The notes below the pieces were generated by a model that saw only the letters and a program-made list of their open reading frames with translations, did no database searches and was not told the origin of the DNA. From UHGV virus genome UHGV-0170246: a stretch of 45,982 bases of DNA. One strand, given 5' to 3'. The DNA is from a virus. Numbering within the stretch: position 1 is the first letter of the stretch; each line of letters starts with the position of its first letter. The translations under genes were made by a program, and so were the position numbers. Of the stretch, positions 1 through 45,982 are shown piece after piece.

Positions 1-38
1 TGGTTTTTCTGTAATGCGCCAGAAGCCTTGTTTATCGT

Positions 39-64
39 TTCCTGCAAACCGAGGTTTTTGCGAA
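39..64. other. gix/cix-like crossover site for a serine DNA invertase (TTCCTGCAAACCGAGGTTTTTGCGAA)
   Basis: Read from sequence; about 22/26 identical to the Mu gix site as I recall it; sits ~65 bp upstream of the invertase gene; nt 1-55 are the exact reverse complement of nt 45928-45982. Confidence 0.7.
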
Positions 65-2801: not shown

Positions 2802-3065
2802 ATGGAACTTGTACGCAAAACACGCAAAGAGTTCTTGGACCTGTATCGCATGGGAGCTTTCACTTGTGTTGTGGCTACCCAGGACGAAGTGACAAAAAGC
2901 TGGCGGCTTTTTGCTCTCAATAAAAAAGGGATTGCCGTTTTCATTGAAAAAGCCCGTGGTGGTATCCGCGAATGGGCGGGATTGAATTATGTGGCTGATT
3001 TTTGCGCAGCTATGGGGATTCGTCGCTGGGAAGTCCATATGCCAGGAGTAAAGTCACAAAAATAG
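2802..3065 (+). CDS. Hypothetical protein
   Basis: ORF 2775-3065; GAGG RBS before ATG 2802; directly follows the HTH-like gene, so a possible two-gene module. Confidence 0.35.
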   Translation: MELVRKTRKEFLDLYRMGAFTCVVATQDEVTKSWRLFALNKKGIAVFIEKARGGIREWAGLNYVADFCAAMGIRRWEVHMPGVKSQK

Positions 3066-3303
3066 GGCTTTCGCGTCGAAAATGAGGCGAAACTGAAAAC
3101 GAGATTTCATTAACAAATAAGCAACATAAAAAACGGTGGAAAACGCCCAGGAAAACATGATCTTTTGAGCGGATTTTTTAGATCCGACAATGAACGGTGA
3201 TCCGGTGGTGCCGATAACGTCCATTATGTTAAATAGCCCCGTTTTTCTTGAAATTATAACCCACAGGTTATATAGTTAGTGATATAAACTACAGGTTATA
3301 GGA

Positions 3304-3657
3304 TTGAGCATGTGGACGGTACTTTTTAGCCAGCGATTTGACGACTGGCTAAATGAGCAAGAAGACGCTCTTCAGGAAAAGGTTTTGGCTGATTTGAAAA
3401 AGCTACAGGTTTACGGACCTGAGTTACCCAGGCCATATGCCGATACCGTAAAAGGTTCTCGGTACAAAAATATGAAAGAGCTTCGCGTTCAGTTTTCTGG
3501 CCGTCCGATAAGAGCCTTTTATGCGTTCGATCCGATTCGCCGGGCCATCGTTCTTTGTGCAGGAGACAAAAGTAACGATAAACGGTTTTATGAAAAACTG
3601 GTGCGTATAGCTGAGGATGAGTTTGCAGCACATCTGAACACACTGGAGAGCAAGTAA
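3304..3657 (+). CDS. RelE/ParE-superfamily toxin, HigB-like (phage Gp49-like)
   Basis: 117 aa; toxin precedes an HTH antitoxin with TAATGA stop/start overlap at 3655-3660; family assignment from recalled pattern. Confidence 0.6.
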   Translation: MSMWTVLFSQRFDDWLNEQEDALQEKVLADLKKLQVYGPELPRPYADTVKGSRYKNMKELRVQFSGRPIRAFYAFDPIRRAIVLCAGDKSNDKRFYEKLVRIAEDEFAAHLNTLESK

Positions 3658-3956
3658 TGAGAACATTAGATGAGGTGATTGCCAGCCGTTCACCTGAAAG
3701 CCAGGCGCGAATTAAAGAAATGGCAGATGAGATGATTCTTGAGGTCGGCTTGCAGATGATGCGTGAAGAACTCCAGTTATCACAAAAACAGGTTGCTGAG
3801 GCGATGGGTATAAGCCAGCCAGCAGTAACAAAGCTGGAGCAGCGCGGAAATGATTTAAAGCTGGCGACATTAAAGCGTTACGTTGAAGCTATGGGAGGCA
3901 AATTAAGCCTGGATGTTGAGCTTCCCACAGGAAAACGAATAGCGTTTAACATCTGA
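3657..3956 (+). CDS. HTH XRE-family antitoxin, HigA-like
   Basis: 99 aa; HTH segment LSQKQVAEAMGISQPAVTKLE; translationally coupled to the upstream toxin. Confidence 0.6.
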   Translation: MRTLDEVIASRSPESQARIKEMADEMILEVGLQMMREELQLSQKQVAEAMGISQPAVTKLEQRGNDLKLATLKRYVEAMGGKLSLDVELPTGKRIAFNI

Positions 3957-3971
3957 TCAGAACGAATGATA

Positions 3972-3997
3972 AGCCCCTGTTGCAAAGGGGCTTTTTT
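3972..3997 (+). terminator. Rho-independent terminator
   Basis: 7-bp stem AGCCCCT/AGGGGCT with a 7-nt loop followed by TTTTTT. Confidence 0.65.
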
Positions 3998-4003
3998 GTG
4001 CTC

Positions 4004-4119
4004 ATAGAATTATATAATTATATATTTATATAAAAAATGCTTTACAGGTGGGAAAAAATTTCCTAAGGTTATAACCGAAACCGAGCGATACCCGCCCTGG
4101 TTAAACCGGAGATAACCCG
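4004..4119 (+). repeat. Conserved promoter/leader cassette, copy A (AT-rich repeat, TTTACA -35 at 4041-4046, ~70-nt leader, GGAG RBS)
   Basis: Near-identical to 13072-13190 and 20695-20812; ends at the ATG of the downstream gene. Confidence 0.7.
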
Positions 4120-4500
4120 ATGAGCATGATTAAAATCCGCAAAAATGCTTTCCTTAAAATTCAAACTATCCTGGCTGGTTCTGTTGGCGTGATTTGCCGT
4201 TCTTCTTCAAGCCGCATCGATGACGGCTACGATGATGAGTACCGTGTGTCCTCGTGCGATGAGGCTTTAACCTGGCTGAAGGAGAATCAGGAACGTGCCC
4301 AGGTATATCTGGAAACAGAGAACGGCAATCAGATGCTGCGTATTAGCGGTCGTTATGGATTTGAAACTACATTCATGGCCTATTTTAATCAGGCTTACTT
4401 TGACAAGGAGCTGGCCTGGTACACTGATCGCATGAGCAAAAGCGAGCCAGCCCCGATTACACCGCCGAACAATAAACCATTTTTATTCCTCGTTAAGTAA
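4120..4500 (+). CDS. Hypothetical protein, first gene after cassette A
   Basis: 126-aa ORF with GGAG RBS inside the conserved leader. Confidence 0.5.
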   Translation: MSMIKIRKNAFLKIQTILAGSVGVICRSSSSRIDDGYDDEYRVSSCDEALTWLKENQERAQVYLETENGNQMLRISGRYGFETTFMAYFNQAYFDKELAWYTDRMSKSEPAPITPPNNKPFLFLVK

Positions 4501-4563: not shown

Positions 4564-4836
4564 ATGACGGGTTATGAATTGAAATTATGGCGTCGTGGGA
4601 TGAACTGGACGCAGGAGCGAGCCGCCGAAGAATTTGGGATATCGTTGGCTACATATAAGCGATATGAGAAGGGGGAGCCGCCGAGGGTCATTGAGATGGC
4701 CATTCGCGTTCTGTCGTTTGACGATATGGTTAAGGATCTTTCACACCTTGATAAAGATGCGATTCTGTTAAGGCTGCAAACCCTTGTATGGGAAAAGGTT
4801 AAAGTGTCGTCAGAATTGGAACAAGGGATCAAATGA
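4564..4836 (+). CDS. HTH XRE-family transcriptional regulator
   Basis: Internal ATG of ORF 4531-4836 preceded by GAGGAGG; HTH segment WTQERAAEEFGISLATYKRYE. Confidence 0.5.
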   Translation: MTGYELKLWRRGMNWTQERAAEEFGISLATYKRYEKGEPPRVIEMAIRVLSFDDMVKDLSHLDKDAILLRLQTLVWEKVKVSSELEQGIK

Positions 4837-5645: not shown

Positions 5646-6791
5646 TTATGGTCTGCTTTTCTGTGCCAGCTTATCAGCACATGTTTTTATCAGATCCTGT
5701 AGTGTCCTGGCTGGCAGGTTTGCATCCAGTACGCTGAGTATGCTGTTGTGTTCTGCTTGGTCGACTACTTTGCCTGTCGGTGGTAGTAGCTTGAGCTGAG
5801 GATTCAGGTTTTCGTCAAAGCTGATAAGTGCTCTGGCGTTTCTGAGCAGATCAAGAAGTAAGGCTGATATCACATTTTCCTGAGTCATTGCTGGCAGACT
5901 TAGCGCCGCTTTGGTTTTCCCTGTTGCCTTGTCAAACTCCTTGATTAGTTCCTTCCTGTAGTTCGGTTCCGTTAATAGCCGATTATGCTCTGTTGCCGCG
6001 CGGATAATCGTTTTTTCCTGGTATAGTCGTTTAGCCAGATCACGCTCGTACTGTGTTTTTAACACGCTGCTGATAGCGTTAAAGGCTTCAATGTAGGCCA
6101 GCTTGATATCTTTCACGCTTGGACCGTCGATGCTCTCCATGAGCAAGGTAAATCCGTCTTTTGTCATGCGATAGATTGTTATTTCGCGGTCGCTTCCTTC
6201 CAGCGGTCGTTGCTCTTTAAAGAAGTGACGCGCCGCAGCTGTGCGAGGAATGCGTAACGCATCGATGGCCATAACGATGGAATTGTTTGTGGTGCTGAAT
6301 GCCTGGGCAACATCGGCTGAGGTTGTGAGTGGCTCGTTGTTGCACACCTTAATGTAATACATTGGTTTAGCGTTGAGCGTATCGACAACCTCACGAGCAT
6401 TGTTTGGTGAGACGGTTACGGTCGCGGCCGTTTGCGCGTTCTGGTTGAAGTAGCAGTCTTCCAGCCGTTCGAATACATCCCACGCCTGATCGGTTTCGAG
6501 CATTTTAGCGTGACGTGCAGCCCCGCGTTCTGTCCAGAGGATGAGGGAGCGGACTTTAGGTGAAACTGGATTTTGAGAGTAGTTTAAAGCTACCCGCAAT
6601 TCTTTAAGGTCATTACCAACAACTTTGAAAAAGTGTTTCCCTTCAACGAAACGTGCTTTGTTCTCATGATGATTCTGGCGAATACGCACCGGCTCAGTGC
6701 CGTAAAGCTGTGCTAGTAACTCGGTAGTAATGACAGGGATTTGGTTATGCAGGATAGGCTGTAGGGTGTTAACGGTCGGAAGCGTTTTCAT
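5646..6791 (-). CDS. Antirepressor-like protein (ORF6N-type N-terminus, Rha-like central region)
   Basis: 381 aa; N-terminal pattern PVITTELLAQLYGTEPVRIRQNHHENKARFVEGKHFFK and internal TTSADVAQAF segment typical of phage Ant/Rha-type regulators (recalled domain patterns). Confidence 0.55.
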   Translation of the reverse strand: MKTLPTVNTLQPILHNQIPVITTELLAQLYGTEPVRIRQNHHENKARFVEGKHFFKVVGNDLKELRVALNYSQNPVSPKVRSLILWTERGAARHAKMLETDQAWDVFERLEDCYFNQNAQTAATVTVSPNNAREVVDTLNAKPMYYIKVCNNEPLTTSADVAQAFSTTNNSIVMAIDALRIPRTAAARHFFKEQRPLEGSDREITIYRMTKDGFTLLMESIDGPSVKDIKLAYIEAFNAISSVLKTQYERDLAKRLYQEKTIIRAATEHNRLLTEPNYRKELIKEFDKATGKTKAALSLPAMTQENVISALLLDLLRNARALISFDENLNPQLKLLPPTGKVVDQAEHNSILSVLDANLPARTLQDLIKTCADKLAQKSRP

Positions 6792-6979: not shown

Positions 6980-7394
6980 GGTGATAGTTCCCTTAAAGGT
7001 TAAGGATACTCACCACCGTCTGGTTCCAATCATTGGGTGGTGAGACGTACAGGGTTGGAACTACCGGTCACCATGGAATCCGGCGAGTCTTACGACTCCC
7101 CCGCACGCCCCACCATAATTTGGGTGTAGCAGTGCTTTACGCATAAAAAAACCGCTAACGCGGTATGCGCCATGATGATTATCGGGGTTCCAATCCCGAC
7201 CGTAGATTTTGCTACGGCTCGGAAAGTGTCCACCAATGGCGCATTTATGTCAATACAGAGGGATTTTAACAGAGACAACCACATAGCGTGGGTTTATTGG
7301 TAGGCAGAAACAAAAAAACCGCCCTATTGAGGACGGTTCTTTCGTGCTGATCGGATTCGCGGTCCTTTCAGCATAACGTCGTTGTACTAATACA

Positions 7395-7414: not shown

Positions 7415-7644
7415 AACTACATTCTTACCCAACTGAGGTGAATAGTCCACTATTCATATAAAAAAATTTAGCTCATTAGCTCATGCAAAATGAAGGTTTT
7501 TAACTTATTTACGTGTAATCTCATGTAATAAAAGCGTTTTTTATTCCTTCATTATGAAGGGTATGACGTGTAATATGGCTTGGGGCCTTTCCGCCGATTC
7601 GCACCCGGGCACTGACTTTCAGGAAAGGATTATCCACTTGCCGT

Positions 7645-7664
7645 ACCACGCAGGCACAAACAGC
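7645..7664. repeat. Direct repeat copy 2 (ACCACGCAGGCACAAACAGC)
   Basis: See copy 1. Confidence 0.6.
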
Positions 7665-7728
7665 GTGCTTGCTCTCGCGTCATTTTCGTCGGTGGGGATG
7701 CCGTGAAACGGCCTGTAAGGGCCACACA

Positions 7729-7851
7729 ATGAAAAAATACTACATGTGTATTTTTATCGTTGTTACTGGAGCTTTGTTTACGCCACATGGGGAGGGTTGG
7801 AAGATTACTGATAACGCTCTGAATGTGACGATAAACATTAGCAGCAAGTAG
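7729..7851 (+). CDS. Possible small hydrophobic peptide (40 aa)
   Basis: In-frame ATG of ORF 7669-7851; one predicted transmembrane stretch (YYMCIFIVVTGALF); followed at once by a strong terminator; no recognisable family. Confidence 0.2.
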   Translation: MKKYYMCIFIVVTGALFTPHGEGWKITDNALNVTINISSK

Positions 7852-7856
7852 CGATT

Positions 7857-7880
7857 AGGCCCCTTCGGGGGCCTTTTTTA
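7857..7880 (+). terminator. Rho-independent terminator
   Basis: 7-bp stem AGGCCCC/GGGGCCT with TTCG tetraloop followed by TTTTTT. Confidence 0.75.
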
Positions 7881-8276: not shown

Positions 8277-8525
8277 TTACTTCTGGTTGTATTGAGCCTT
8301 GAGTAACTCAAAAGATTTTGTCAGCACTTCTTTCAATGACATATCCATTGAACTGGCGAACGTTTTGTACTCGCGTTTAAATTCAGGGTCGACGTTAAAC
8401 GCCATTTGTGCCCCACCTGATTTGGTTCTGGTTGGCGTTTCAGTCGGGTCGAAAACCTGCGGTTGTTCGATCGATGGCGGTACGCCTTTGCTGTTCTTCT
8501 TTGGTGGTTTTGATGGTGCGGCCAT
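8277..8525 (-). CDS. ParG-like ribbon-helix-helix centromere-binding protein
   Basis: 82 aa, immediately downstream of parA; unstructured basic N-terminal tail and C-terminal RHH-like segment (FNVDPEFKREYKTFASSMDMSLKEVL). Confidence 0.6.
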   Translation of the reverse strand: MAAPSKPPKKNSKGVPPSIEQPQVFDPTETPTRTKSGGAQMAFNVDPEFKREYKTFASSMDMSLKEVLTKSFELLKAQYNQK

Positions 8526-8537
8526 GTGTATCCCCTC

Positions 8538-8570
8538 TTATATAAATCTATAAAACTATAATTATATATT
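8538..8570. repeat. AT-rich motif locus (TATAAATCTATAAAACTATAATTATATATT) downstream of parG
   Basis: Member of the dispersed TATAATTATATA(AAT) motif family. Confidence 0.55.
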
Positions 8571-9237
8571 ACGCGGCAGTAGTCAGAGCCTCAAGCTGGT
8601 TGATAATCCCCTGAATAACGTCGTCTGCCTTTTTGCGTGGCGCAACGTATGAGCATTCAATGAGGCTTAAGCCCTTATCCTGAGCTTTGCTCAGAGCTGG
8701 CTTGTGGGGAATGTACTTATCGACAACAAAGTATGGCGTATTAGCCAGGTACTCTTGGGCTTCAATATAGTCAGCTTCATTTTCAGCCGCGCCGGAAAAC
8801 ACCATGCAAATTTTCTTGATTGGCACACCCTTTTTAACGATGCCGTGAGCAGTGTTAACGGTGGTTTCCAGGTCATCGGTAGAGAATCGGGTTGGCAAAA
8901 TAACCATATCCAGAAATTCAGATAGCTTCGGTACTGATTCAGATGCGTAGGCACCGCCATCAACGATAACCAGGTCGTATACTTCTGATTCGATGATTTT
9001 CTGGACTTGTGATGGTGTGCCGCACGGCTGCGCCGCGATTGCTGGTTCGATATTGTTGGCCATTCTGCGTTGTACCCAACGCGTTACCGTTCCGTTAAGC
9101 ACATCCATATCGATCAGGCATACATTCCAGCCAGCCTTTGCATAAGCAACTGCTAAAGCACGGGCAATTGTTGATTTGGTTACGCCGCCTTTTCCGTTGA
9201 AAATACCTACAGAGATAGTCATTTGTCGAGACTCCAT
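8569..9237 (-). CDS. parA: ParA-family partition ATPase (small type Ib ParA/ParF-like)
   Basis: 222 aa; deviant Walker A GKGGVTKST near the N-terminus; followed by a small RHH protein gene. Confidence 0.8.
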   Translation of the reverse strand: MESRQMTISVGIFNGKGGVTKSTIARALAVAYAKAGWNVCLIDMDVLNGTVTRWVQRRMANNIEPAIAAQPCGTPSQVQKIIESEVYDLVIVDGGAYASESVPKLSEFLDMVILPTRFSTDDLETTVNTAHGIVKKGVPIKKICMVFSGAAENEADYIEAQEYLANTPYFVVDKYIPHKPALSKAQDKGLSLIECSYVAPRKKADDVIQGIINQLEALTTAA

Positions 9238-9246
9238 GTGTTTGGT

Positions 9247-9350
9247 TATATAATTCTATAAATCTATATTTATAGAACGAGGTAAGCATAACCAACTTTT
9301 TGGCGGATGGAAAGTGTTTTATATAATTATATAAATCTATAATCATATAA
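9247..9350. repeat. Two AT-rich motif blocks upstream of parA (candidate par promoter/centromere)
   Basis: TATATAATTCTATAAATCTATATTTATAGA and TTATATAATTATATAAATCTATAATCATATAA read directly. Confidence 0.55.
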
Positions 9351-9372
9351 GCGGGCGTTAGCCCGCTTGCAG

Positions 9373-9747
9373 TCAGAGGTCAGCTATCGTTGATATCAGT
9401 TGATTTGCTAGCTGTCGCTGTTTACGTGAGAGGGTTAGAGCAGCTTCTGAGCGGTCGCTAAGAGGGGTGTTTTCATCAAGAATCATGAGGCATACAGAAA
9501 TAATAGCCCTGTTATATGCCATCAATGGCTGGCACAGCTTCGATACCGCTGGCACATCGTATTGCAAGGCCGTTTTGAGGCAGACTTTTTGTTCTGATGC
9601 CAGATGAAGGATAGATTCTATCCAGTCGATATCTTTCTCATTATCAATGATTTGGCATAACATACACTCAATCGCTATGTTCAACGCTTGGATTTCGATT
9701 CCAGCAGTGATCAGAGTTTCATTTTTATTGGCTGTATGTAATTCCAT
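9373..9747 (-). CDS. Hypothetical protein downstream of the repressor gene
   Basis: 124-aa ORF, same strand as the repressor; an operator-type palindrome lies between the two genes. Confidence 0.45.
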   Translation of the reverse strand: MELHTANKNETLITAGIEIQALNIAIECMLCQIIDNEKDIDWIESILHLASEQKVCLKTALQYDVPAVSKLCQPLMAYNRAIISVCLMILDENTPLSDRSEAALTLSRKQRQLANQLISTIADL

Positions 9748-9780
9748 GCGTAGCCTCTTTTATACTTTTACATGTTGTCA

Positions 9781-9797
9781 AAACCACATAATGTGGT
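9781..9797. promoter_or_regulatory. Operator-like palindrome AACCACATAATGTGGTT
   Basis: Perfect 6-5-6 inverted repeat, same half-sites as 813-829. Confidence 0.55.
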
Positions 9798-9839
9798 TTT
9801 TTTGAGCGTAGAAATGCACGGCTTTCGCCGTGCTGTGTA

Positions 9840-10496
9840 TCATAACCAGTTGACAACACTAACTACGCGGCCAAGAACTTTATAACGCTTAAATTCCTCG
9901 TTATTCAGATGCTTAGTGTTCATTTCAGCATCCCTTTCGGTTGACAGCATAACAGCATTGTCACCCGGTATGACTCTACAGTGCCTCAAAACAACCAGGC
10001 CATTTCTGTCTTCAAGGGCATAGATCCCCTCATGAATCTCTGTATCGTCTGTATTAATCAGGACTTGGGAGCCAGGGGATATTGTTGGTGACATTAACTC
10101 ATCGTTGCTCTGGAGAACTGACAGAGACGATGGGTTGATGTTCTTGCTTCGTAGAATCTCCTGTTCTATCGCCAGCACTGGCTTTTCTCCGGCGTGCGAT
10201 GCTATGTCATTTTTTATAGCTACAAGCCCAGGAATAACAGGAGCGTTAGTATTCTGGGGTGGGAACGGGTTATCTGTTAAGCACGCGATATAAGGCGCTG
10301 ATGCTTTCAGGGCGTGCGCGATTTTCTTGATGGCAGGTATCGATGGTTGTCTTAATCCGGCCTCATAGTTCTGCAAGGTGCTTAAGCCTATTCCAGTGAC
10401 TTGCTGGAGATCTCCGGCAGTCATGCCGGATTGTTTCCGTAGAGTCTGAATGCGCAGACCTATTTCTTTCTTGATGTTCTCGTCGTTGCTTTTCAT
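9840..10496 (-). CDS. CI-like phage repressor (N-terminal HTH, C-terminal LexA/S24-like domain)
   Basis: 218 aa; HTH TAGDLQQVTGIGLSTLQNYEAG; C-terminal region has the overall S24 pattern but the GxSM catalytic motif is not obvious on hand alignment. Confidence 0.75.
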   Translation of the reverse strand: MKSNDENIKKEIGLRIQTLRKQSGMTAGDLQQVTGIGLSTLQNYEAGLRQPSIPAIKKIAHALKASAPYIACLTDNPFPPQNTNAPVIPGLVAIKNDIASHAGEKPVLAIEQEILRSKNINPSSLSVLQSNDELMSPTISPGSQVLINTDDTEIHEGIYALEDRNGLVVLRHCRVIPGDNAVMLSTERDAEMNTKHLNNEEFKRYKVLGRVVSVVNWL

Positions 10497-10532: not shown

Positions 10533-10652
10533 TACCACATTTAGTGGTTTTCACATGGTAAGACGAGAGGTGGACCACAAATAGAAGGTTATTTTTTGTT
10601 TCGCCCATTGAAAAACTCACGATATGTGGTTTTAATACCACATATCGTGGTT
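10533..10652. promoter_or_regulatory. Immunity-region operator cluster: three palindromes of the ACCAC-N5-GTGGT type
   Basis: TACCACATTTAGTGGTT (10533-10549), ACTCACGATATGTGGTT (10615-10631), TACCACATATCGTGGTT (10636-10652) between the divergent repressor and rightward early genes. Confidence 0.65.
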
Positions 10653-10670
10653 TTAACTGGAGTTCGTTAA

Positions 10671-12643: not shown

Positions 12644-13021
12644 GTGAGACGCGATCTGGATAGCTTGTTTGAGCTATGGGCGCTGTGGGTGCGCAATGGC
12701 TGCAACGCCCGTAGCGGTTTCGCGTCGATGTTAGAAATGATGATGGTTACGCGTTGCCAGTTTACCGGAGGGGGCGGCGCACCAAATGACTCACTGGAAA
12801 CCAGTATCGAGGGAGCTGTGACGGCCCTCACGGTAGTTGATGAGACTGCGGCGCTGGTTGTCCGAATTGAATACGGGGCGTGGGAGATTCGGGGCCTCGA
12901 CATAAATGCACCGCATATTGATAAAGCCCACGCCCTTTCTCTTAGTCTCAGACAGTATCGCCGGAAGCTGGCAAAAGCCAGGGCGTATGTTGTCGACTAT
13001 TTGAAAAAGCGAAGAGAGTGA
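12644..13021 (+). CDS. Possible Q-like antitermination protein
   Basis: 125 aa; N-terminal LWALWVRNG resembles the WGAW region of one Q family; weak and from memory only. Confidence 0.25.
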   Translation: MRRDLDSLFELWALWVRNGCNARSGFASMLEMMMVTRCQFTGGGGAPNDSLETSIEGAVTALTVVDETAALVVRIEYGAWEIRGLDINAPHIDKAHALSLSLRQYRRKLAKARAYVVDYLKKRRE

Positions 13022-13071: not shown

Positions 13072-13190
13072 AAATCTATAAATATATAATTATAGATTTA
13101 TATAAAAAGTGCTTTACAGGTGGGAAAAAATTTCCTAAGGTTATACCCGAAACCGAGCGATACCCGCCCTGGTTAAACCGGAGAAATCTG
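13072..13190 (+). repeat. Conserved promoter/leader cassette, copy B (TTTACA at 13113-13118)
   Basis: Near-identical to cassettes A and C; ends at ATG 13191. Confidence 0.7.
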
Positions 13191-14258
13191 ATGAATAAAC
13201 AAGTAATTATTTCTGACTGGATCAACAACCCTAACAGCCTGTTAAGCACTGATACTGGCTACCTATTACGCCATGTTAATGGTCGTATGGTCAAAAGCGA
13301 TGAGCACGAAACCTTTTTCTTTGTTGAAGACGATGGGCGTATCTATGAGGATGGTTACTCTTATGAAGCCCAAACTGGTTGTATCCCTGCGGAGCTGGTG
13401 GACGTAACAGAAGATCTGCGCAAAGCATGGCTTGAACAGCAGCAGCGCGGAGATGATTACGTAAACACCTATCAGGAACGCCAGAACGCGCGTCTTGCCC
13501 GATATATTGCTCGTGCAGAAAAAGCCAGAAAAGAAGGTGCGGTAGCGCATAAGCGAGCGCATGACCTGTTGGATGTGATCCCGTTAGGCCAGCCGATTTT
13601 AGTTGACCATTATAGCGCGAAAGGCCATCGCCGCCGTTTGTCTAAAGCTGATGCGTTATTCAGAAAAGCGTTTGTTGAATGCGAAAGTAAAGCATCACAC
13701 TACGAGAGCAAAGCCGCAGGTGTTGGTCGTAATGGAATTTCGTCTGATGATCCTGATGCGCTATTTAAGTTGCTTCGTAAGCTGCAAGGCTGCATGAAGT
13801 CACACGTCAAAATGAAGGCAGCAAATAAGGCCATTCGCAAATACAAAAAAGACCAATTACAGCAGCTTTCTGCATTAATCGATCTCAGGTTTACAGAAAG
13901 CGAAGCCAAAGAGTTACTGGCCGGAGATTTCTGTGGGCACATCGGATTCCCTTCATACGCACTGAGCAACAATAAGGCCGAAATCAAACGACTACAGAGC
14001 CGTATTAAGGAGCTTGAATCGGTCAAGTCTGTAACAGGAGCACAGCGCGAAGAATACGACGGCTTTTCTATGGAGATAGATCCAGAGGATAACCGCATCC
14101 TGTTTTATTTCCCTGGCAAACCAGAGGCAAACATTCGTTCGCTGCTTAAATCACGCGCCTTTAAGTGGAGTCCAACCCGTAATGCATGGGTTCGCAAGAT
14201 TACTCCAAACGCCCTGGCTGATGCCCGATATCTGAAAGAATCGCTATTGAAAGCCTGA
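13191..14258 (+). CDS. Hypothetical protein (355 aa), first gene after cassette B
   Basis: Long ORF with GGAG RBS in the conserved leader; family not recognised. Confidence 0.5.
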   Translation: MNKQVIISDWINNPNSLLSTDTGYLLRHVNGRMVKSDEHETFFFVEDDGRIYEDGYSYEAQTGCIPAELVDVTEDLRKAWLEQQQRGDDYVNTYQERQNARLARYIARAEKARKEGAVAHKRAHDLLDVIPLGQPILVDHYSAKGHRRRLSKADALFRKAFVECESKASHYESKAAGVGRNGISSDDPDALFKLLRKLQGCMKSHVKMKAANKAIRKYKKDQLQQLSALIDLRFTESEAKELLAGDFCGHIGFPSYALSNNKAEIKRLQSRIKELESVKSVTGAQREEYDGFSMEIDPEDNRILFYFPGKPEANIRSLLKSRAFKWSPTRNAWVRKITPNALADARYLKESLLKA

Positions 14259-14288
14259 CAGTAAGCCTACGGCGGGATATCTCCCGCC

Positions 14289-14320
14289 GTATATAGAATT
14301 ATATATTTATATAAATGTAT
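14289..14320. repeat. AT-rich motif locus (TATATAGAATTATATATTTATATAAATGTATA)
   Basis: Shares the ATAGAATTATATA core with cassettes A and C. Confidence 0.5.
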
Positions 14321-14335
14321 AAGGACGCCTCGACA

Positions 14336-14617
14336 ATGAAACGCAAAATTATTAACCCCCAAGATGTGATTAATTTCCTGACCGATCACCCATGTTCAAA
14401 AGTGGACGTAATCGCGGAGCACATTGGTGTGTCGCAGAACTCTATGCGTTGCAGACTGAGAAGCATGGTTGCCGAAGGACAGATAACAACCAGGAAAATA
14501 AATGGTTGCCTGTACTACTCCGCTAAACCGGAATTGCCATTTGGCATGAATCCTAACTCCATGTTGTTTAACACCTTATTAGCCAAAGTTAAGCCGTTGA
14601 GAGGGGCTGTGGCATGA
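14336..14617 (+). CDS. Hypothetical protein, possible winged-helix DNA-binding protein
   Basis: Internal ATG of ORF 14315-14617. Confidence 0.35.
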   Translation: MKRKIINPQDVINFLTDHPCSKVDVIAEHIGVSQNSMRCRLRSMVAEGQITTRKINGCLYYSAKPELPFGMNPNSMLFNTLLAKVKPLRGAVA

Positions 14618-19160: not shown

Positions 19161-19435
19161 CTGGTTTGAAGGCCGTTTTGTCATTTATTGGCACAATTAT
19201 ATTGGTTGCATTTGGCGCGTTTGGTTTTGGTCGTATGAAGGGGCGAGAAAAGGCCGAAGATGAAGCTGAAAAGCAGCGCATTAATGAGAATGCAGCCGCC
19301 GTAAAAGCCACTGCGGAGCGGCGTATAGAAGTGACAAAAGAGGTGGGGAATGTACAGCAGAGTGTTAACCATATGGCTGATGACGATGTTGATCGCGAGC
19401 TGCGGGAGTCGTGGAAGCGTCCCGGTGGTGGTTGA
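19157..19435 (+). CDS. Putative i-spanin (Rz-like)
   Basis: 92 aa; N-terminal transmembrane segment then charged coiled region; follows the endolysin with ATGA overlap. Confidence 0.5.
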   Translation: MTGLKAVLSFIGTIILVAFGAFGFGRMKGREKAEDEAEKQRINENAAAVKATAERRIEVTKEVGNVQQSVNHMADDDVDRELRESWKRPGGG

Positions 19436-19559
19436 TACCGCCTGTGATTGGGTAAAGCCCATCTACCTGACTGATCACGACATCGATGTTATGGACCGAC
19501 AGACAAAGAAAGATATTCTGGCTCATAACAGGGCATGGGAAATCAACTGTCCAAAGTAA
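19350..19559 (+). CDS. Putative o-spanin lipoprotein (Rz1-like), overlapping the i-spanin gene in another frame
   Basis: 69 aa; signal peptide with lipobox LIASC. Confidence 0.5.
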   Translation: MYSRVLTIWLMTMLIASCGSRGSVPVVVDTACDWVKPIYLTDHDIDVMDRQTKKDILAHNRAWEINCPK

Positions 19560-19594
19560 TATATATTTCTATAATTATATAAATATATAGTTAC
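19558..19594. repeat. AT-rich motif locus (ATATATTTCTATAATTATATAAATATATAG)
   Basis: Contains the CTATAATTATATAAAT core shared with the par-flanking repeats. Confidence 0.5.
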
Positions 19595-19728
19595 AACATT
19601 CTATGCGCTTTTCTCATGGGCGCACGCATCAACCATGTTTGTCTGATATGCCGCCGCGCCCAAAAATCCTGAATTTATTGGCTGGGATTTTCGTGCGCGG
19701 CGCCACACCAGACAAACAAATCAAATAT

Positions 19729-19804
19729 GGCCCCTTAGCTCAGTGGTTAGAGCAGGCGACTCATAATCGCACGGTCATCGGTTCAAATCCGGTAGGGGCC
19801 ACCA
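19729..19804 (+). tRNA. tRNA with anticodon CAU (Met, or Ile2 if lysidine-modified)
   Basis: Hand-folded cloverleaf: 7-bp acceptor stem GGCCCCT/AGGGGCC, D arm, anticodon loop CTCATAA, T arm GGTTCAAATCC, encoded CCA; strongly resembles E. coli ileX as I recall it. Confidence 0.85.
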
Positions 19805-20111
19805 ATTCACTCTCACACATAAAGATAAGCGCGGTGGAGTTACTTCTTCGTGCTCATCTTTATGCGTGCCTGGTGCGCATTTCGGGCGAACGTGGGGCTA
19901 AGTTACAGGCAGGGCCTGTTATCCGCAAAGGGGTAAAAGCTGGAGCGGCACGGAACTGTAGCCGTGTTACCAAAACAGCGTTGTCGGGCGATATCCGGCA
20001 CACAACAGGCAAGGGCATTAATCAGTCTGGTTAGTGCCCTTTTCGTTGTGTTTGCTGTAGAGCTGGCCAGCGTTATGACTGCCGGAGATAAGCGCCGGAG
20101 GCACAATTAAC

Positions 20112-20699
20112 ATGGAGGCAATTGCATTGTTTAATCTGATTTATGCAGATCCCCCCTGGGAATACAAAGACAAGTGTAAGGATGGGAATCGTGGAGCTGG
20201 TTTTAAGTATCCAACGATGAAAGCTGAGGAGATTGCTCGTATTCCTGTCTGGCAGCTTGCTAATCCTGAATCGTGTTTGTTGGCCATGTGGTGGGTTCCG
20301 ACTCAGCCAGAAGAAGCGTTGCTGGTGGTTAAAGCATGGGGATTCAGGCTGATGACCATGAAGGGCTTCACATGGAACAAATGTGGTAGCCGACAACCAG
20401 ATAAGCTGGTGATGGGGATGGGGCATATGACTCGTGCAAACAGTGAAGATTGCTTGTTTGCGGTAAAAGGCAAACTGCCGACCCGTCTTGATGCGGGGAT
20501 CATTCAGTCGTTTACATCGCCTCGTCTGGAGCATTCTCGGAAGCCTGATGTGGTCCGTGACAAGCTGGTAAAGCTGTTAGGTGATGTTCCTCGTATTGAG
20601 CTGTTTGCTCGCGGTGATTTACCTGATGGCTGGCATGGCTGGGGCAACCAGTGCAATGGAGGTATCCAGTTGCATGATGCTCTCTGGCAAGTGGCATAG
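20112..20699 (+). CDS. MT-A70 family N6-adenine DNA methyltransferase
   Basis: 195 aa; DPPW catalytic motif (YADPPWEY) near the N-terminus. Confidence 0.8.
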   Translation: MEAIALFNLIYADPPWEYKDKCKDGNRGAGFKYPTMKAEEIARIPVWQLANPESCLLAMWWVPTQPEEALLVVKAWGFRLMTMKGFTWNKCGSRQPDKLVMGMGHMTRANSEDCLFAVKGKLPTRLDAGIIQSFTSPRLEHSRKPDVVRDKLVKLLGDVPRIELFARGDLPDGWHGWGNQCNGGIQLHDALWQVA

Positions 20700-20812
20700 A
20701 ATTATATAATTATAGATTTATATAAAAAGTGCTTTACAGGTGGGAAAAAAATTTCCTAAGGTTATACCCGAAACCGAGCGATACCCGCCCTGGTTAAACC
20801 GGAGATAACCCG
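20695..20812 (+). repeat. Conserved promoter/leader cassette, copy C (TTTACA at 20733-20738)
   Basis: Near-identical to cassettes A and B; ends at ATG 20813. Confidence 0.7.
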
Positions 20813-22861: not shown

Positions 22862-23533
22862 ATGACAAAACATCTTAATGTGGTTTCTTTACCACTTTCT
22901 GTGTTGATTGGTTATGAAAAGAACGCTCGCACACACTCCGTGGAGCAGGTAGATCAGATTGTTGCCAGCATACAGGAGTACGGATGGACTAATCCGATCC
23001 TGATAGACGAGAACAACGTTGTAATTGCTGGTCATGGTCGAATTGTTGCGGCCACTCAGTTGGGGATGGATGACGTTCCCTGCATTGTTCTGGAAGGGCT
23101 AACGGAGAATCAGAAGAAGGCATATCGTCTGGCCGACAACCGTATTCCGCTGAATGCTGGTTGGGATGAAGAGTTGTTAAGCGCGGAACTTGCAGATCTT
23201 GCGGCCGATGATTTTGCTCTGGACTCAATTGGTTTTACTCAGCGCGAACTGGATAACTTATTGAGTGCGGCGGTCTACGATGACACAGAGGGTATGGATA
23301 TCCCATTTGAGAAGGATGAGGCCAAATCAGGCGTAAAAGTTCAGTACCTGTCATTTGGAGGTCATAAAATCCCAGCAACGGATGGGAAGCGGATCGTTTT
23401 GACTGCGCGGTATCTCGTTATGTTGATGATAATGGCAGCTATATCGGATTTGTATCCGCATTGCTGGCTGGGGAGGTGTGCTGATGCTTCATCTCAATTA
23501 CGACATAACGCACCTACGCGGCGCGGAATATAA
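22862..23533 (+). CDS. ParB-like nuclease domain protein (paralogue 1)
   Basis: 223 aa; ParB/Srx motif AGHGR; about 55% identical by eye to the protein at 26151-26741 over the N-terminal ~130 aa. Confidence 0.7.
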   Translation: MTKHLNVVSLPLSVLIGYEKNARTHSVEQVDQIVASIQEYGWTNPILIDENNVVIAGHGRIVAATQLGMDDVPCIVLEGLTENQKKAYRLADNRIPLNAGWDEELLSAELADLAADDFALDSIGFTQRELDNLLSAAVYDDTEGMDIPFEKDEAKSGVKVQYLSFGGHKIPATDGKRIVLTARYLVMLMIMAAISDLYPHCWLGRCADASSQLRHNAPTRRGI

Positions 23534-24857
23534 CCCGCGTTTTATCGGTGAGGATGATCTTGCGAGGCTGGCGGAAAGCGTCAGGGAGCTGGGGCTTGTG
23601 AAGCCATTGATAGTGCGCGGCGATTTGCTGGTGGCGGGACACCAAAGGACGAAGGCGCTACGTAAGTTGGGAATAACGCGTGCTGCGGTGTATGTGTTGC
23701 CCTGTGAAACGACGGTATACGACGAAGTACGGTTTAACCAACTGCATAACGGAACGGATTTTGACAGCGGAGATGAGCGTTGCAGGGTGTCAGGTCTGGA
23801 AGATAAGCATGGTTTTGTTCAGGTATCGGCAAGCCAGATCTCAGGCAATATGCGCGCGAAAATGGCATATGTTCGAAAGAACATAGCGGAACTGGTTATC
23901 AAGTATGGGCCGTGGGGTGGTTGTGTTGCTACTCAGTCTGGTGAGGTTATTCACTGTGCTCAGTATGCATTAGCAGCGAAGATGACGCGCACACCGCTAA
24001 CGGTGTTTGTGATCCCTGATGTTGAGAAGGAAAAATACCAAAGTTATCTGAATAAAACTTATGGTGTATTTGAGTATTCTCACCTGGAGAAAACAACATA
24101 CATCCAGACGTATGCGCAGCTTATGCGGTTGCGTAATGGTGGCAGCCTGAAATCAAACCTGTATGAGTCGTTGATCCTCCCGATCATTGCCAAGACGCCA
24201 AGAGGAATTGATTTTGGTTCGGGGCAGGGAGACTACGCGCGAATGCTCAGGGCAAAGGGATATAACCTGCATGATCTAGAGCTTTTCCGCCGTAAGGGCG
24301 CTGGAAACACTCTGGATAGGACTGCAACAAACCGGATGATTGATACGCTGGTGGACGACTTAAAAACGCGAGGGCGTTACGACTACGTGATTTGCGATAG
24401 CGTTTTGAACTCGGTCGATAGTGTCGAGGCTGAATGGTCCGTTCTAACGGTTCTGAAAGGCCTGTGTAAAGCTGGTGGGTCAATATTCTTTTCTGGTCGT
24501 AGCCGTGGAGAGCTGGAAACAGTCCTGAAGCAAACACAAGCGGCGAGTTCCAAAAGCCGGCTTTATTTTATTGATCATAACGGTTTTACCGCGTTGTACC
24601 GGAAGGGGCACTGGTTTTACCAGAAGTTTCACTCTGATGATGAAGTGAAGCAGTTGTGTCGTGTACATGGTTTCAGGATTAAGCGGTCAATATTCAACTG
24701 TAAGAGCTGGTATTTGCACGTCATTAACGATGATTCCCTTAGTTGGGCGAGTCTGGAGAAAGCTGTTCGTTTTGAGTTTGAGTTGCCGTTGCCTGGTGGT
24801 TCAACAATCGGACGATCTGATGATGTGCTGGCGGCTTTCCGGCCGTTGATTAAGTAG
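23484..24857 (+). CDS. ParB-like N-terminal domain fused to a class I SAM-dependent methyltransferase-like domain
   Basis: GGGAGG RBS before ATG 23484; N-terminus LLVAGHQRTKALRKLG is ParB-like; C-terminal region has motif I IDFGSGQG, acidic post-I, hhhhD (YDYVICD) and GG motif; no DPPY-type motif seen. Confidence 0.55.
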   Translation: MLHLNYDITHLRGAEYNPRFIGEDDLARLAESVRELGLVKPLIVRGDLLVAGHQRTKALRKLGITRAAVYVLPCETTVYDEVRFNQLHNGTDFDSGDERCRVSGLEDKHGFVQVSASQISGNMRAKMAYVRKNIAELVIKYGPWGGCVATQSGEVIHCAQYALAAKMTRTPLTVFVIPDVEKEKYQSYLNKTYGVFEYSHLEKTTYIQTYAQLMRLRNGGSLKSNLYESLILPIIAKTPRGIDFGSGQGDYARMLRAKGYNLHDLELFRRKGAGNTLDRTATNRMIDTLVDDLKTRGRYDYVICDSVLNSVDSVEAEWSVLTVLKGLCKAGGSIFFSGRSRGELETVLKQTQAASSKSRLYFIDHNGFTALYRKGHWFYQKFHSDDEVKQLCRVHGFRIKRSIFNCKSWYLHVINDDSLSWASLEKAVRFEFELPLPGGSTIGRSDDVLAAFRPLIK

Positions 24858-26150: not shown

Positions 26151-26741
26151 ATGGCTCTAAAAATCGAATATTTACCAGTCGGTAAGCTGCTCAGATACGC
26201 CAAAAATTCACGGACTCATTCAGATGAGCAAGTTGAACAGTTGGTGAACAGTATCCGTGAGTTCGGTTTCACTAATCCTGTGCTGATCGATGAAAAGAAT
26301 GAACTGATTGCGGGGCATGGGCGGCTTGCAGCAGCCGAAATTCTGGAAATGGATAAAGTTCCAGCGATTCGGTTGAGTAACCTTTCTGAAAAACAGAAGA
26401 AGGCTTACAGGATTGCAGATAACAAGCTGGCCTTAAATGCTGGCTGGGATATGCAGCTTCTGGCCGAAGAAGTCAAAGCGTTAATGGATGATGATTTTGA
26501 TATTGATCTGCTTGGGTTTAATGATGCAGAGCTTGACGAAATGTTAAGCGATGAACAGCCGCAGGAAGAAGACGATAATTCTTCCCCTGTTGTTCAAATT
26601 AAGTACCTGGCTATTGATAAAGAACGTATTCCCGCGACGGATATGGAAATTGCATTGTTGCTGGATGTTTATCGTCAGTACCACGACGCGCATGAAACGC
26701 ATGAGGGATTTGTTCAGTATCTTGCTAATGGTTGCAAGTAA
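26151..26741 (+). CDS. ParB-like nuclease domain protein (paralogue 2)
   Basis: 196 aa; AGHGR motif; paralogue of 22862-23533. Confidence 0.7.
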   Translation: MALKIEYLPVGKLLRYAKNSRTHSDEQVEQLVNSIREFGFTNPVLIDEKNELIAGHGRLAAAEILEMDKVPAIRLSNLSEKQKKAYRIADNKLALNAGWDMQLLAEEVKALMDDDFDIDLLGFNDAELDEMLSDEQPQEEDDNSSPVVQIKYLAIDKERIPATDMEIALLLDVYRQYHDAHETHEGFVQYLANGCK

Positions 26742-44570: not shown

Positions 44571-45982
44571 GTGAGTAAATTATTATTTACGATGACTGAC
44601 GCCGGGCGTCAGGAGCTGGTTAATGCCAACAAAACAGGAACAAATAAAGTTGAGATTGTTTCTGTTGGTTTAGGTAGTAGATATTATGTCACGTCAACTT
44701 CACAAACAAATATAACAAACGAAATAAAACGACTTACCACAATAGGTGGCAAAGTTGTTTCCCCTGATACAATTCATGTAACAGCGAAGGATGATAGTAA
44801 AGATGAGTATGTTGTCCATACAATAGGATTGTATACGAATAAGGGTACGTTGTTTGCTGTATACTCACAAGAACAAGCAATAATAAATAAAGCATCATCT
44901 ACTATCGCTTTAATATCAAGTGATATAGCAATTAAAACTCTTGATACTAAAAATATTACATTTGGTGATATTGAGTTTATTAATCCTCCCGCGACCGAAA
45001 CTGTTGTTGGGGTGGCAAGATTTGCTAATGAACAAGAAATTGATGCAGGTACAGATGATTCCCTTGCTGTTTCAGCAAAACGGCTTAAGCAAGCCATTGT
45101 GAAACATGAGCAATCACGTAATCATCCTGATGCAACTTTAACCTCAAAAGGCTTTGTTCAACTTAGCAGCGCCACCAATAGCGCGTCTGAAACGCTTGCT
45201 GCGACGCCTAAGGCTGTTAAGGCAGCATATGACCTGGCTAATGCTAAATACACCGCACAGGACGCTACCACAGCGCGAAAAGGGATTGTTCAGCTCAGTA
45301 GTGCCACCAACAGCACGTCTGAAACGCTGGCAGCAACACCAAAGGCTGTTAAGGCAGCGTATGATCTTGCGGCCGGAAAGGCTCCGTCCAATCACACGCA
45401 TTCGTGGGAGCAGATAACAAATGTGCCTGTAGCTTCACTGACTGTAAGGGGAATAACTCAGCTCAGTAGTGCCACCAACAGCACGTCTGAAACACTGGCC
45501 GCGACATCGAAAGCTGTAAAGGTGGTAATGGATGAAACGAACAAGAAAGCGCCCCTGAACAGTCCGGCGCTGACCGGAACACCAACAACACCAACTGCGC
45601 CAAAAGGTACTAACAATACTCAGATCGCAAGCACGGCTTATGTTATGGCTGCGATTGCCGCCCTTGTAGATTCGTCACCTGACGCACTGAATACGCTGAA
45701 CGAGTTAGCGGCGGCGCTGGGAAACGACCCGAATTTTGCGACCACCATGACTAACGCGCTTGCGGGTAAGCAACCGAAAGATGCCACCCTGACGGCGCTG
45801 GCCGGGCTTGCTACTGCGGCAGACAGGTTTCCGTATTTTACGGGGAATGATGTCGCCAGCCTGGCAACTCTGACAAAAGTCGGGCGGGATATTCTTGCGA
45901 AATCGACCGTTGCCGCCGTTATCGAATACCTCGGTTTGCAGGAAACGATAAACAAGGCTTCTGGCGCATTACAGAAAAACCA
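44571..45982 (+). CDS. Tail fibre protein (P2 gpH / Mu S-like constant part), 3'-truncated by the window edge
   Basis: GTG start; open frame to the window end, absent from the ORF track because there is no stop; three tandem fibre repeats; reading frame runs through the gix-like site at 45919-45944. Confidence 0.8.
   Translation, partial: MSKLLFTMTDAGRQELVNANKTGTNKVEIVSVGLGSRYYVTSTSQTNITNEIKRLTTIGGKVVSPDTIHVTAKDDSKDEYVVHTIGLYTNKGTLFAVYSQEQAIINKASSTIALISSDIAIKTLDTKNITFGDIEFINPPATETVVGVARFANEQEIDAGTDDSLAVSAKRLKQAIVKHEQSRNHPDATLTSKGFVQLSSATNSASETLAATPKAVKAAYDLANAKYTAQDATTARKGIVQLSSATNSTSETLAATPKAVKAAYDLAAGKAPSNHTHSWEQITNVPVASLTVRGITQLSSATNSTSETLAATSKAVKVVMDETNKKAPLNSPALTGTPTTPTAPKGTNNTQIASTAYVMAAIAALVDSSPDALNTLNELAAALGNDPNFATTMTNALAGKQPKDATLTALAGLATAADRFPYFTGNDVASLATLTKVGRDILAKSTVAAVIEYLGLQETINKASGALQKN
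45150..45535 (+). repeat. Three tandem ~90-bp coding repeats inside the tail fibre gene (GxVQLSSATNSxSETLAATPKAVKAAYDLA)
   Basis: Read directly at ~45150-45242, 45280-45372 and 45446-45535. Confidence 0.8.
45919..45944. other. gix/cix-like crossover site (TTATCGAATACCTCGGTTTGCAGGAA), inverted partner of 39-64
   Basis: About 23/26 identical to the Mu gix site as recalled; lies inside the tail fibre reading frame. Confidence 0.7.

Follow-up and report, generated by a model that had tools for sequence, protein, structure and literature searches.

The partition operon of the viral genome UHGV-0170246 and a family of A/T-rich repeats dispersed around it were analysed. The whole stretch of 45,982 nucleotides, referred to as the window, is a nearly complete circular phage-plasmid. 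It carries eight arrays of short repeats, which are probably the cooperative binding sites of the element's own 82-aa ParG-like protein, a candidate ribbon-helix-helix (RHH) protein and the partner of ParA in a type Ib partition system. The best reading of the sequence comparison is that the arrays would serve as combined centromere and operator sites, with the RHH partition protein acting as a global regulator in a logic like that of omega of pSM19035. The initial annotation had offered, among other possibilities, operators of a global regulator that link promoter cassettes to partition; this proposal is favoured by the comparison of related par loci, in which the repeated box covaries with the beta-strand of the ParG-like protein.

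Detection of the repeat arrays

The motif family was found at the places where it had been reported and far beyond chance. The 20-mer of the initial annotation gave 13 matches with up to 3 mismatches as against 0 in 100 shuffles, and the core 12-mer TATAAATCTATA gave 14 matches with up to 1 mismatch, compared to 0.27 expected. Alignment of the copies revealed every locus to be an array of about four 8-bp units with the consensus ATAKAWTT. A weight matrix was built from this unit and the score was taken over four consecutive units; it returned exactly eight loci in the window with 32-42 bits, while the maximum of 200 shuffles was 13 bits. The eight 32-bp arrays are located at 4004-4035, 8536-8567, 9244-9275, 9317-9348, 13076-13107, 14293-14324, 19561-19592 and 20696-20727, and they coincide exactly with the only eight 32-nt segments of the 46 kb having at most 3 G/C. 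Self-identity inside the arrays peaked at lag 8 (0.71 versus at most 0.56 at other lags). The motif is quasi-symmetric and both strands score alike by weight matrix, due to which the orientation of the boxes cannot be fixed. The count of seven loci given earlier has to be corrected to eight, as the region 9247-9350 holds two arrays split by the par promoter. The A/T-rich background named there as a null expectation does not apply, the G+C of the window ranging from 0.36 to 0.50 along its length (about 45% overall) and the shuffles never coming close.

Location of the arrays at the par operon, promoters and operon junctions

When read toward the downstream gene the arrays form two classes, four being upstream of a -35 hexamer and four being before a ribosome binding site (RBS) or another downstream feature, in or heading transcription units. 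In the first class, comprising three 108-nt promoter cassettes and the distal par array, the -35 hexamer lies 3-5 nt past the array end.

Three arrays of 4 units each belong to the par operon, on the minus strand. The distal one (9317-9348) comes directly after the hairpin (9351-9370) that terminates the upstream gene, and 3 nt separate its end from the -35 of the putative par promoter (9285-9313, minus strand), which was read from the sequence as -35 TTTCCA (9313-9308), a 17-nt spacer and -10 TATGCT (9290-9285). The proximal array (9244-9275) spans roughly +2 to +35, downstream of the -10, with 21 nt between it and the parA start at 9222; the promoter is thereby sandwiched between the two. 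The third array (8536-8567) occupies the parA-parG spacer, where it abuts the RBS and ends 10 nt before the ATG of the parG-like gene. The earlier statement that the motifs flank parA/parG holds for the two arrays upstream of parA and for the one in the spacer, while none was found 3' of the parG-like gene.

The promoter cassettes are on the plus strand. Cassette 1 (4004-4119) consists of the array 4004-4035, the -35 TTTACA (4041-4046), a -10-like TAAGGT (4064-4069), a 50-nt leader and an RBS, followed by the ATG at 4120. Cassette 2 (13076-13190), with its array at 13076-13107 and the same promoter and leader, drives a DUF3560/primase-like gene (13191-14258). Cassette 3 (20696-20812) has its array at 20696-20727, overlapping the last codon of the MT-A70 methyltransferase gene (20112-20699), and with promoter and leader as in cassette 1 it heads the operon leading into ParB/Srx-like, terminase and structural genes. 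The order is array, TTTACA, 17 nt, TAAGGT, 50-nt leader, GGAGA and ATG, and two copies are 95% identical. A consensus promoter scan called neither the cassette promoters nor the par promoter; their -35 and -10 elements were assigned by eye and the -10 is weak. It was also observed that the parts of the cassettes following the arrays (4036-4119, 13108-13190, 20728-20812) share the near-identical promoter and 50-nt leader (CGAAACCGAGCGATACCCGCCCTGGTTAAACCGGAGA) before unrelated genes. The leader was considered as a structured RNA and this was rejected, as it folds no better than shuffles (z -1.5) and is without an Rfam family match.

The remaining two arrays, also on the plus strand, are at operon junctions. 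The array 14293-14324 follows a hairpin (14271-14288), and 11 nt past its end is the ATG (14336) of a MarR/winged-helix-like gene encoding 93 aa. The translation-initiation region after it (14325-14338, AAGGACGCCTCGACAATG) resembles that of parA (9222-9243, ATGGAGTCTCGACAAATG) and that of parA in two related loci (L008 and L011, described below), which suggests that array and initiation region may have been duplicated as one unit. The array 19561-19592 starts at the stop codon of the gene 19350-19559 and is 136 nt upstream of tRNA-Met (19729-19804). The open reading frame (ORF) 19603-20034 (143 aa) was rejected as a target of this array, since the tRNA-Met (CAT) lies inside it and relatives annotate the tRNA only; the ORF is probably spurious. 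A 34-nt inverted repeat (19636-19669 / 19685-19718) is present between the array and the tRNA.

Each of the eight loci is conserved in phage vB_YpM_39, the plasmid of Escherichia coli ATCC 25922, E. fergusonii and Salmonella plasmids (87-99% identity). The array length is polymorphic among the relatives, from 3 to 6 units and always in 8-bp steps. In E. fergusonii pRHB41-C23_4 (NZ_CP055602.1, 14603-14658) the array of cassette 2 is made up of 6 units, and the cassette-1 and distal par arrays have 3 units each in a Salmonella Weltevreden plasmid (NZ_LN890526.1; 30365-30392 and 34060-34088). Variation of the unit number in such steps is what a repeat-reading protein would tolerate.

The window also contains a second dispersed motif, a family of palindromes of the ACCACATAATGTGGT family, type AAACCACATAATGTGGTTT, at 806-834, 7271-7298, 9775-9803, 10608-10657 and 22862-22890. 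Two copies are in the divergent cI/early-operon region, one is upstream of repA and one is near the c4 region. Judged from their sequence and position, they are probably operators of the CI-like repressor.

ParA and the ParG-like protein

The earlier recognition of a partition operon is supported; the operon comprises a small Walker-type ParA and an 82-aa ParG-like RHH candidate. The ParA gene (8569-9222, minus strand; Pfam CbiA/ParA/MipZ, PHROG 164 ParA-like) encodes a partition ATPase of 217 aa. Its ORF reaches 9237, and the start at 9222 with the RBS GGAG fits both the annotation of the relatives (a 654-nt 'ParA family protein') and an alignment beginning at M6. ParA, of 217-222 aa depending on the start, has the deviant Walker A motif NGKGGVTKST at the N-terminus, and Pfam CbiA/ParA/MipZ/AAA_31 matches span the whole protein. 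An N-terminal DNA-binding helix-turn-helix (HTH) domain is lacking, which is the type Ib kind.

The centromere-binding candidate is encoded at 8277-8525 (minus strand) and belongs to PHROG 6024, a group of unknown function. It has a basic N-terminal tail predicted to be disordered (residues 1-40), a predicted beta-strand 'QMAFNV' (40-45) and helices at 47-59 and 64-80. The protein itself has few close relatives and gave no Pfam or PDB sequence match. An exhaustive search yielded about 50 small homologues with 32-48% identity, sharing the basic N-terminal motif KPPKKNxKGxPP, a variable linker and a C-terminal LNFKV..EF.RE.K.FA...DMSM.ELL...FELYK. Pfam RHH_10 was matched weakly by 16 of 46 homologues and Antitox_RHH by 10 of the 46, and Pfam ParG was matched neither by the protein nor by its homologues. 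The profile of 46 homologues aligned in PDB with ParG (1P94) at E 0.88 over strand and helix 1 in the right register, and hhalign to TP228 ParG gave 48.8% probability (E 1.8e-4) over the RHH domain. Omega was absent among the sequence matches of the PDB searches with the 82-aa protein.

The AlphaFold2 (AF2) model with the 46-sequence alignment has predicted local distance difference test (pLDDT) values above 90 at residues 41-80, covering an extended segment and two helices, with the tail disordered. The top Foldseek matches of the model were nearly all RHH proteins, including ParG 1P94, CopG, Arc, ParD and AmrZ, with target-normalised template modelling (TM) scores of 0.65-0.87 and root mean square deviations of 1-2.4 A. 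The RHH assignment is regarded as likely. The protein is not demonstrably a member of the ParG family, the homology being marginal and the box different, nor of the omega or SopB families.

Covariation of box and protein among par loci

Nine hand-picked par loci were compared, among them those encoding distant homologues of the 82-aa protein and a conjugative plasmid (L012) that surfaced in a DNA search; the boxes were read by eye and then confirmed with weight matrices. ParA is homologous across the loci (45-54% identity where measured) and the ParG-like proteins show 35-48% identity. Wherever the region upstream of parA was recovered, the small gene is preceded by one for a homologous ParA, and the arrangement always runs from a terminator through the distal array, the -35/-10 and the proximal array to the RBS and parA. 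This promoter sandwich is kept while the box differs, for example in L007, L008, L010 and L011.

The box tracks those residues of the beta-strand which alternate with hydrophobic ones, that is, the residues predicted to face the DNA. The strand AQMAFNV of the window is accompanied by the box TATA/TAGA, and AQLNLYV of L012 by CTATA/TATA, which there forms a perfect 28-bp palindrome. The strand LLTFNI of L007 is found with TACATA/TATGTA, and xNFNV of L008, L010 and L011 with CTTTAA/CTTTAT. The strand KDLNFKV is present in L009 with the box TTTCGCTAA/TTAGCGAA (CGCT type) and also in L013, a plasmid of another replicon type (Rep3, TrwC-type relaxase), with the same box; the CGCT box of L013 was predicted from the strand before inspection and was found as predicted. 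The window's own weight matrix gave no arrays in the distant loci L007 and L008 because those loci use other boxes, and locus-specific matrices recovered their own arrays well above shuffles.

Arrays away from the par promoter were also observed in the distant relatives. The distant phage-plasmid L010, with the CTTTAA box, has five of them (25-32 bits versus a shuffle maximum of 19.7), one directly after the MT-A70 homologue as in cassette 3 of the window and another downstream of the homologue of gene 12644-13021, roughly in the place of cassette 2. In L007 arrays are located 2.4 kb from par and downstream of parG, and in L013 they flank rep and also precede a Toprim gene and ssb. The comparison thus indicates that dispersal is a property of the par family and that the dispersed copies changed along with the specificity.

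In the pCRY-like conjugative plasmid L012 (NZ_CP037908.1), whose par locus is present in 87 PLSDB records, TATA-type arrays precede parA, occupy the parA-parG spacer and recur at two gene junctions of the type IV secretion system (T4SS) operon. What this plasmid has in common with the window is limited to ParA (45%), the ParG-like protein (39%) and a HigBA fragment of recent import; homologues of the CI-like repressor, the MarR-like protein, the 124-aa protein and the small HTH protein of the window were not found in it. As only the par proteins and the imported fragment are shared, L012 points to a par protein as the binder.

Proposed mechanism

In the combined centromere and operator reading, each array would present about four boxes at 8-bp spacing, a TATA/TAGA-type box with an A/T spacer, to one dimer per box, and the ParG-like dimers would coat the array cooperatively. 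The three arrays around parA (12 boxes) would form the partition complex and stimulate ParA through the basic tail, while the arrays bracketing the par promoter would autoregulate the operon. Through the five dispersed arrays the ParG-like protein would also reach the three near-identical promoters and the two operon junctions. In the cassettes the array would take the UP-element position (-38 to -70) of promoters with a poor -10. The simplest effect of binding at this position would be reduced transcription, with the alpha C-terminal domain of RNA polymerase being displaced, though it might also activate. Repression is somewhat the more probable sign of regulation, activation is rather unlikely, and the rest is left to the absence of any transcriptional effect. 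The junction arrays could act as roadblocks or as extra centromere sites. How strongly several phage and plasmid modules are expressed would in this way follow from the partition protein's concentration per genome copy.

The sequences show the arrays, how they are built, their conservation and their covariation with the protein; from these we infer binding itself, repression and centromere activity, and several points weigh against doing so. The support for binding and regulation comes from sequence and comparison, and the covariation describes five specificity classes in the nine hand-picked loci, not the family as a whole. Even with no dedicated protein, A/T sequence between -38 and -70 would function as an UP element, and a repeat made of A/T only does not allow the exact box or its orientation to be fixed. 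Four arrays are inside transcription units next to an RBS, where the use for an operator is not obvious. The number of boxes per array is about 4, compared to at least 8 needed by TP228 for efficient centromere function (PMC3130281).

Four other explanations were weighed against the binding of the ParG-like protein. The arrays could be pure centromeres dispersed in the N15 style, all eight loading the partition complex without a transcriptional role. Four contiguous repeats, as in each array, are enough to activate ParA in the omega system (PMC9499535), and N15 is a precedent of a phage-plasmid with scattered centromere sites (PMC7205306). This explanation is quite unlikely, as the arrays are placed precisely at promoters (four of them 3-5 nt upstream of the -35, another covering the transcription start), those at operon junctions are syntenic in distant relatives, and in all characterised type Ib systems the RHH protein also represses its own operon (PMC3130281; PMC9499535). 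The analogy with N15 drawn in the initial annotation holds only for the logic of dispersal; the element itself is not N15-like, being circular, with no annotated protelomerase and with a type Ib ParA instead of a type Ia SopB system with inverted repeat (IR) palindromes. It could also be that no dedicated binder exists. The arrays would then be promoter modules of a generic A/T-rich kind (UP elements, -10-like TATAAT clusters) or places where H-NS, IHF or Fis nucleate, and would have spread by cassette duplication. TpA-rich A/T tracts are good targets of H-NS, four arrays are exactly at the UP-element position of promoters with weak -10 elements (TAAGGT, TATGCT), and the three cassettes are clearly duplicates of one another. 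Generic dependence on A/T does not predict, however, that the same positions in homologous par loci hold other boxes, including the G/C-containing TTTCGCTAA, which track the strand of the ParG-like protein. Four arrays, those in the parA-parG spacer, at +2 to +35 of the par promoter, at 14293 and at 19561, are also not upstream of a recognisable promoter, and the strict 8-bp period with length steps of 8 bp points to a repeat-reading protein. An origin without a dedicated binder is accordingly considered improbable.

Operators of another regulator of the element would be very improbable. The proteins concerned are the CI-like repressor (9840-10496), which had been named earlier as a possible binder, the 124-aa protein (9373-9747), the MarR-like protein (14336-14617) and the small HTH protein (4564-4836). 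The genes of CI, the 124-aa protein, ParA and the ParG-like protein are syntenic in all phage-plasmid relatives and would likewise covary with the arrays, and the array directly before the MarR-like gene would suit autoregulation. The separate ACCACATAATGTGGT palindromes at the cI/early-operon divergent region and elsewhere nevertheless fit an HTH dimer of the CI type, so that CI seems to have an operator family of its own. Moreover, L012 has TATA-type arrays at its par and T4SS operons yet lacks homologues of all four proteins, and in L013, a Rep3/TrwC plasmid also without the phage genes including CI, the arrays are dispersed as well. A role at the RNA level, in which transcribed A/U tracts before the RBS are translational enhancers (ribosomal protein S1) or RNase E sites, has hardly any probability. 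It would account for the four arrays that end 6-21 nt before an RBS or start codon within transcription units, and likewise for the T4SS junctions of L012 and the array at 4178 of L010. The four other arrays are upstream of the -35 and would not be transcribed from those promoters. The arrays are also quasi-palindromic at the DNA level, up to the perfect 28-bp palindrome of L012, the CGCT-box variants are not simply A/U-rich, and the cassette leader is not significantly structured (z -1.5).

The binding of the ParG-like protein to the arrays may be carried one tentative step further, to a partition protein that acts as a sensor of genome copy number and times phage development; this extension is unlikely on present evidence. 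In the plasmid state the autoregulated ParG-like pool would saturate the eight arrays, hold down the cassettes and block read-through at the junctions. In lytic replication the multiplied arrays would titrate the protein, and the primase-like gene, the packaging-gene operon and the HTH regulator would be released together. The beta-strand and the whole regulon would have evolved together, giving at least five classes of specificity among phage-plasmids and conjugative plasmids.

The element and its relatives

The window is matched with 98-99% identity by 61 PLSDB plasmids of 46-52 kb, mostly of E. coli and including the 48.5-kb plasmid of E. coli ATCC 25922, and by the Yersinia pestis phages vB_YpM_39, 41 and 44. 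The par region is present in 71 of 5,426 complete E. coli genomes, 71 of its 72 places being plasmids, and relatives also occur in Salmonella, Klebsiella and E. albertii. The annotated relatives encode an IncFII-type RepA, a DNA invertase, the HigBA toxin-antitoxin, the CI-like repressor, ParA, lysis genes, terminase and a P2-like contractile tail. Every complete relative is recorded as circular and carries the IncFII-type RepA, and no protelomerase is annotated in any of them. An identity with the 'pSLy3' phage-plasmid group was rejected, pSLy3 being a 114-kb relative of SSU5. Literature searches on the phage-plasmid family or its par system found nothing.

The ends of the window (1-58 / 45925-45982) form a 58-nt inverted repeat, 98% complementary, beside a Hin/Gin-type invertase gene (129-683). 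The repeat together with the invertase indicates that the window was cut within a tail-fibre (host-range) segment that can invert, and does not represent a linear genome with hairpin ends. The adjoining tail-fibre region contains three 93-nt direct repeats (45146-45538).

An ORF6N/Rha antirepressor gene (5646-6791, minus strand) is adjoined by Rfam matches to a C4 antisense RNA (7033-7120, minus strand), an isrK-like RNA (7145-7218, minus strand) and a ryfA-like RNA (7581-7879, plus strand). This group looks like a P1/P7-type immI module, in which c4 RNA controls the antirepressor, additional to the CI-like repressor. Three proteins with a ParB/Srx N-terminal domain are encoded upstream of the terminase (22862-23533, 23478-24857 and 26151-26741), one of them being fused to a methyltransferase in relatives. 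They adjoin the terminase and have no arrays nearby, and it is unlikely that they are the partition ParB.

Two relatives differ in their combination of modules. In the conjugative plasmid L012, a cfr plasmid, the segment 1444-2900 is a 97%-identical copy of window 3013-4057 comprising the HigBA genes and cassette 1, cut by IS26 just after the -35, and this imported copy adjoins that plasmid's own TATA-array par operon. The copy is sequence evidence of exchange between a phage-plasmid and a conjugative plasmid. In a 32-kb relative (NZ_CP024829.1), of which 20.6 kb were examined, RepA, HigBA, cassette 1 and the tail genes are kept, and parA-parG, cI and the early operon were not seen in that portion; its cassette-1 array is below the scan threshold. 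Judged from the 20.6 kb of 32 kb, it would be a deletion derivative apparently kept without the par system.

Significance

The phage-plasmid family is common, and among its E. coli carriers is the universal quality-control strain ATCC 25922, which as a natural carrier is a ready experimental host; the family is also infectious, as the Yersinia pestis phages belong to it. If the proposed binding is true, segregation and phage gene expression would be wired through one protein acting at three identical promoters and two operon junctions. Such wiring of partition and regulation was previously shown for a Gram-positive plasmid (omega) and for N15, the latter with a different protein class. What is most likely new here, as far as the sequences tell, is a type Ib RHH partition protein with a dispersed, co-evolving regulon of sites in a prevalent enterobacterial phage-plasmid; the principle has precedents. 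Small conjugative plasmids of the pCRY-like kind also carry this par family, and their T4SS operon contains arrays; the principle may be general for the family. The constant architecture, with a box that changes along with three residues of the beta-strand, could provide a rule set for RHH-DNA recognition. The comparative series could supply orthogonal repressor and centromere parts, which would be natural orthogonal RHH-operator pairs if the sensor model is true.

Comparison with known partition systems

The TP228 ParG protein binds tetramer boxes that are set apart by AT-rich spacers of 4 bp. Each box, whether direct or inverted, takes one dimer, and the same arrays act in both roles, as an operator of 8 boxes and a centromere of 12 (PMC3130281). 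The window resembles TP228 ParF-ParG in having a small Walker ParA with a protein of about 80 aa, for which a flexible basic N-terminal tail and a C-terminal RHH domain are predicted, and in having, upstream of the operon, short boxes that recur every 8 bp with A/T spacers between them and vary in orientation. The similarity of the 82-aa protein to ParG in sequence and fold is weak but correctly placed. The differences are that the box is TATA/TAGA-like and not ACTC, with no ACTC arrays in the window; that the 12 + 8 contiguous boxes of TP228 are represented by 3 x 4 boxes, of which two sets bracket the promoter and one is between parA and parG; and that the homology of the 82-aa profile to ParG is marginal (E 0.88 against PDB). 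Five further arrays are present here at other promoters and operon junctions, 4-12 kb away. No comparable dispersed sites are known for TP228.

The closest match in logic is delta/omega of pSM19035. The RHH protein omega (ParB) binds parS arrays in the copS, delta and omega promoters, which are operators as well as centromeres, and four contiguous repeats are the functional minimum to activate ParA (PMC9499535). This minimum equals the array size in the window, where at the sequence level arrays of about 4 units are likewise found in several promoters, four abutting the -35 and one over the transcription start. Unlike the 7-bp heptads WATCACW of omega, the units here are 8 bp of A/T, and no sequence relationship between the two was detected, none having been specifically tested. 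Furthermore, pSM19035 is a Gram-positive (Inc18, Firmicutes) plasmid and the window an enterobacterial phage-plasmid, and omega targets copy control, partition and toxin-antitoxin genes, whereas the arrays here are at phage and plasmid modules of mostly unknown function and at a tRNA region.

N15 has a type Ia SopB of the HTH ParB family with 4 palindromic IR sites of 16-18 bp (PMC7205306), and its partition sites are described as scattered over the genome (Ravin and Lane 1999, as cited in PMC7205306). Like N15, the present element is a temperate phage kept as a plasmid and has dispersed candidate partition sites. It differs from the linear, protelomerase-encoding N15 in being circular, with an IncFII-type RepA, a type Ib ParA and an RHH-like partner, and its sites are 8-bp repeat arrays and not palindromes of the GTGCGACCnnGGTCGCAC type. 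KorB of RK2/IncP, a ParB, is both a partition protein and a global regulator acting through 12 dispersed OB sites. It is a large HTH protein that recognises a 13-bp palindrome and can act at a distance, with no RHH domain and no short-repeat arrays. Overall, the site architecture of the window is like that of TP228 ParFG and the logic of its proposed regulon is like that of pSM19035 delta/omega, while N15 and RK2 KorB are looser precedents.

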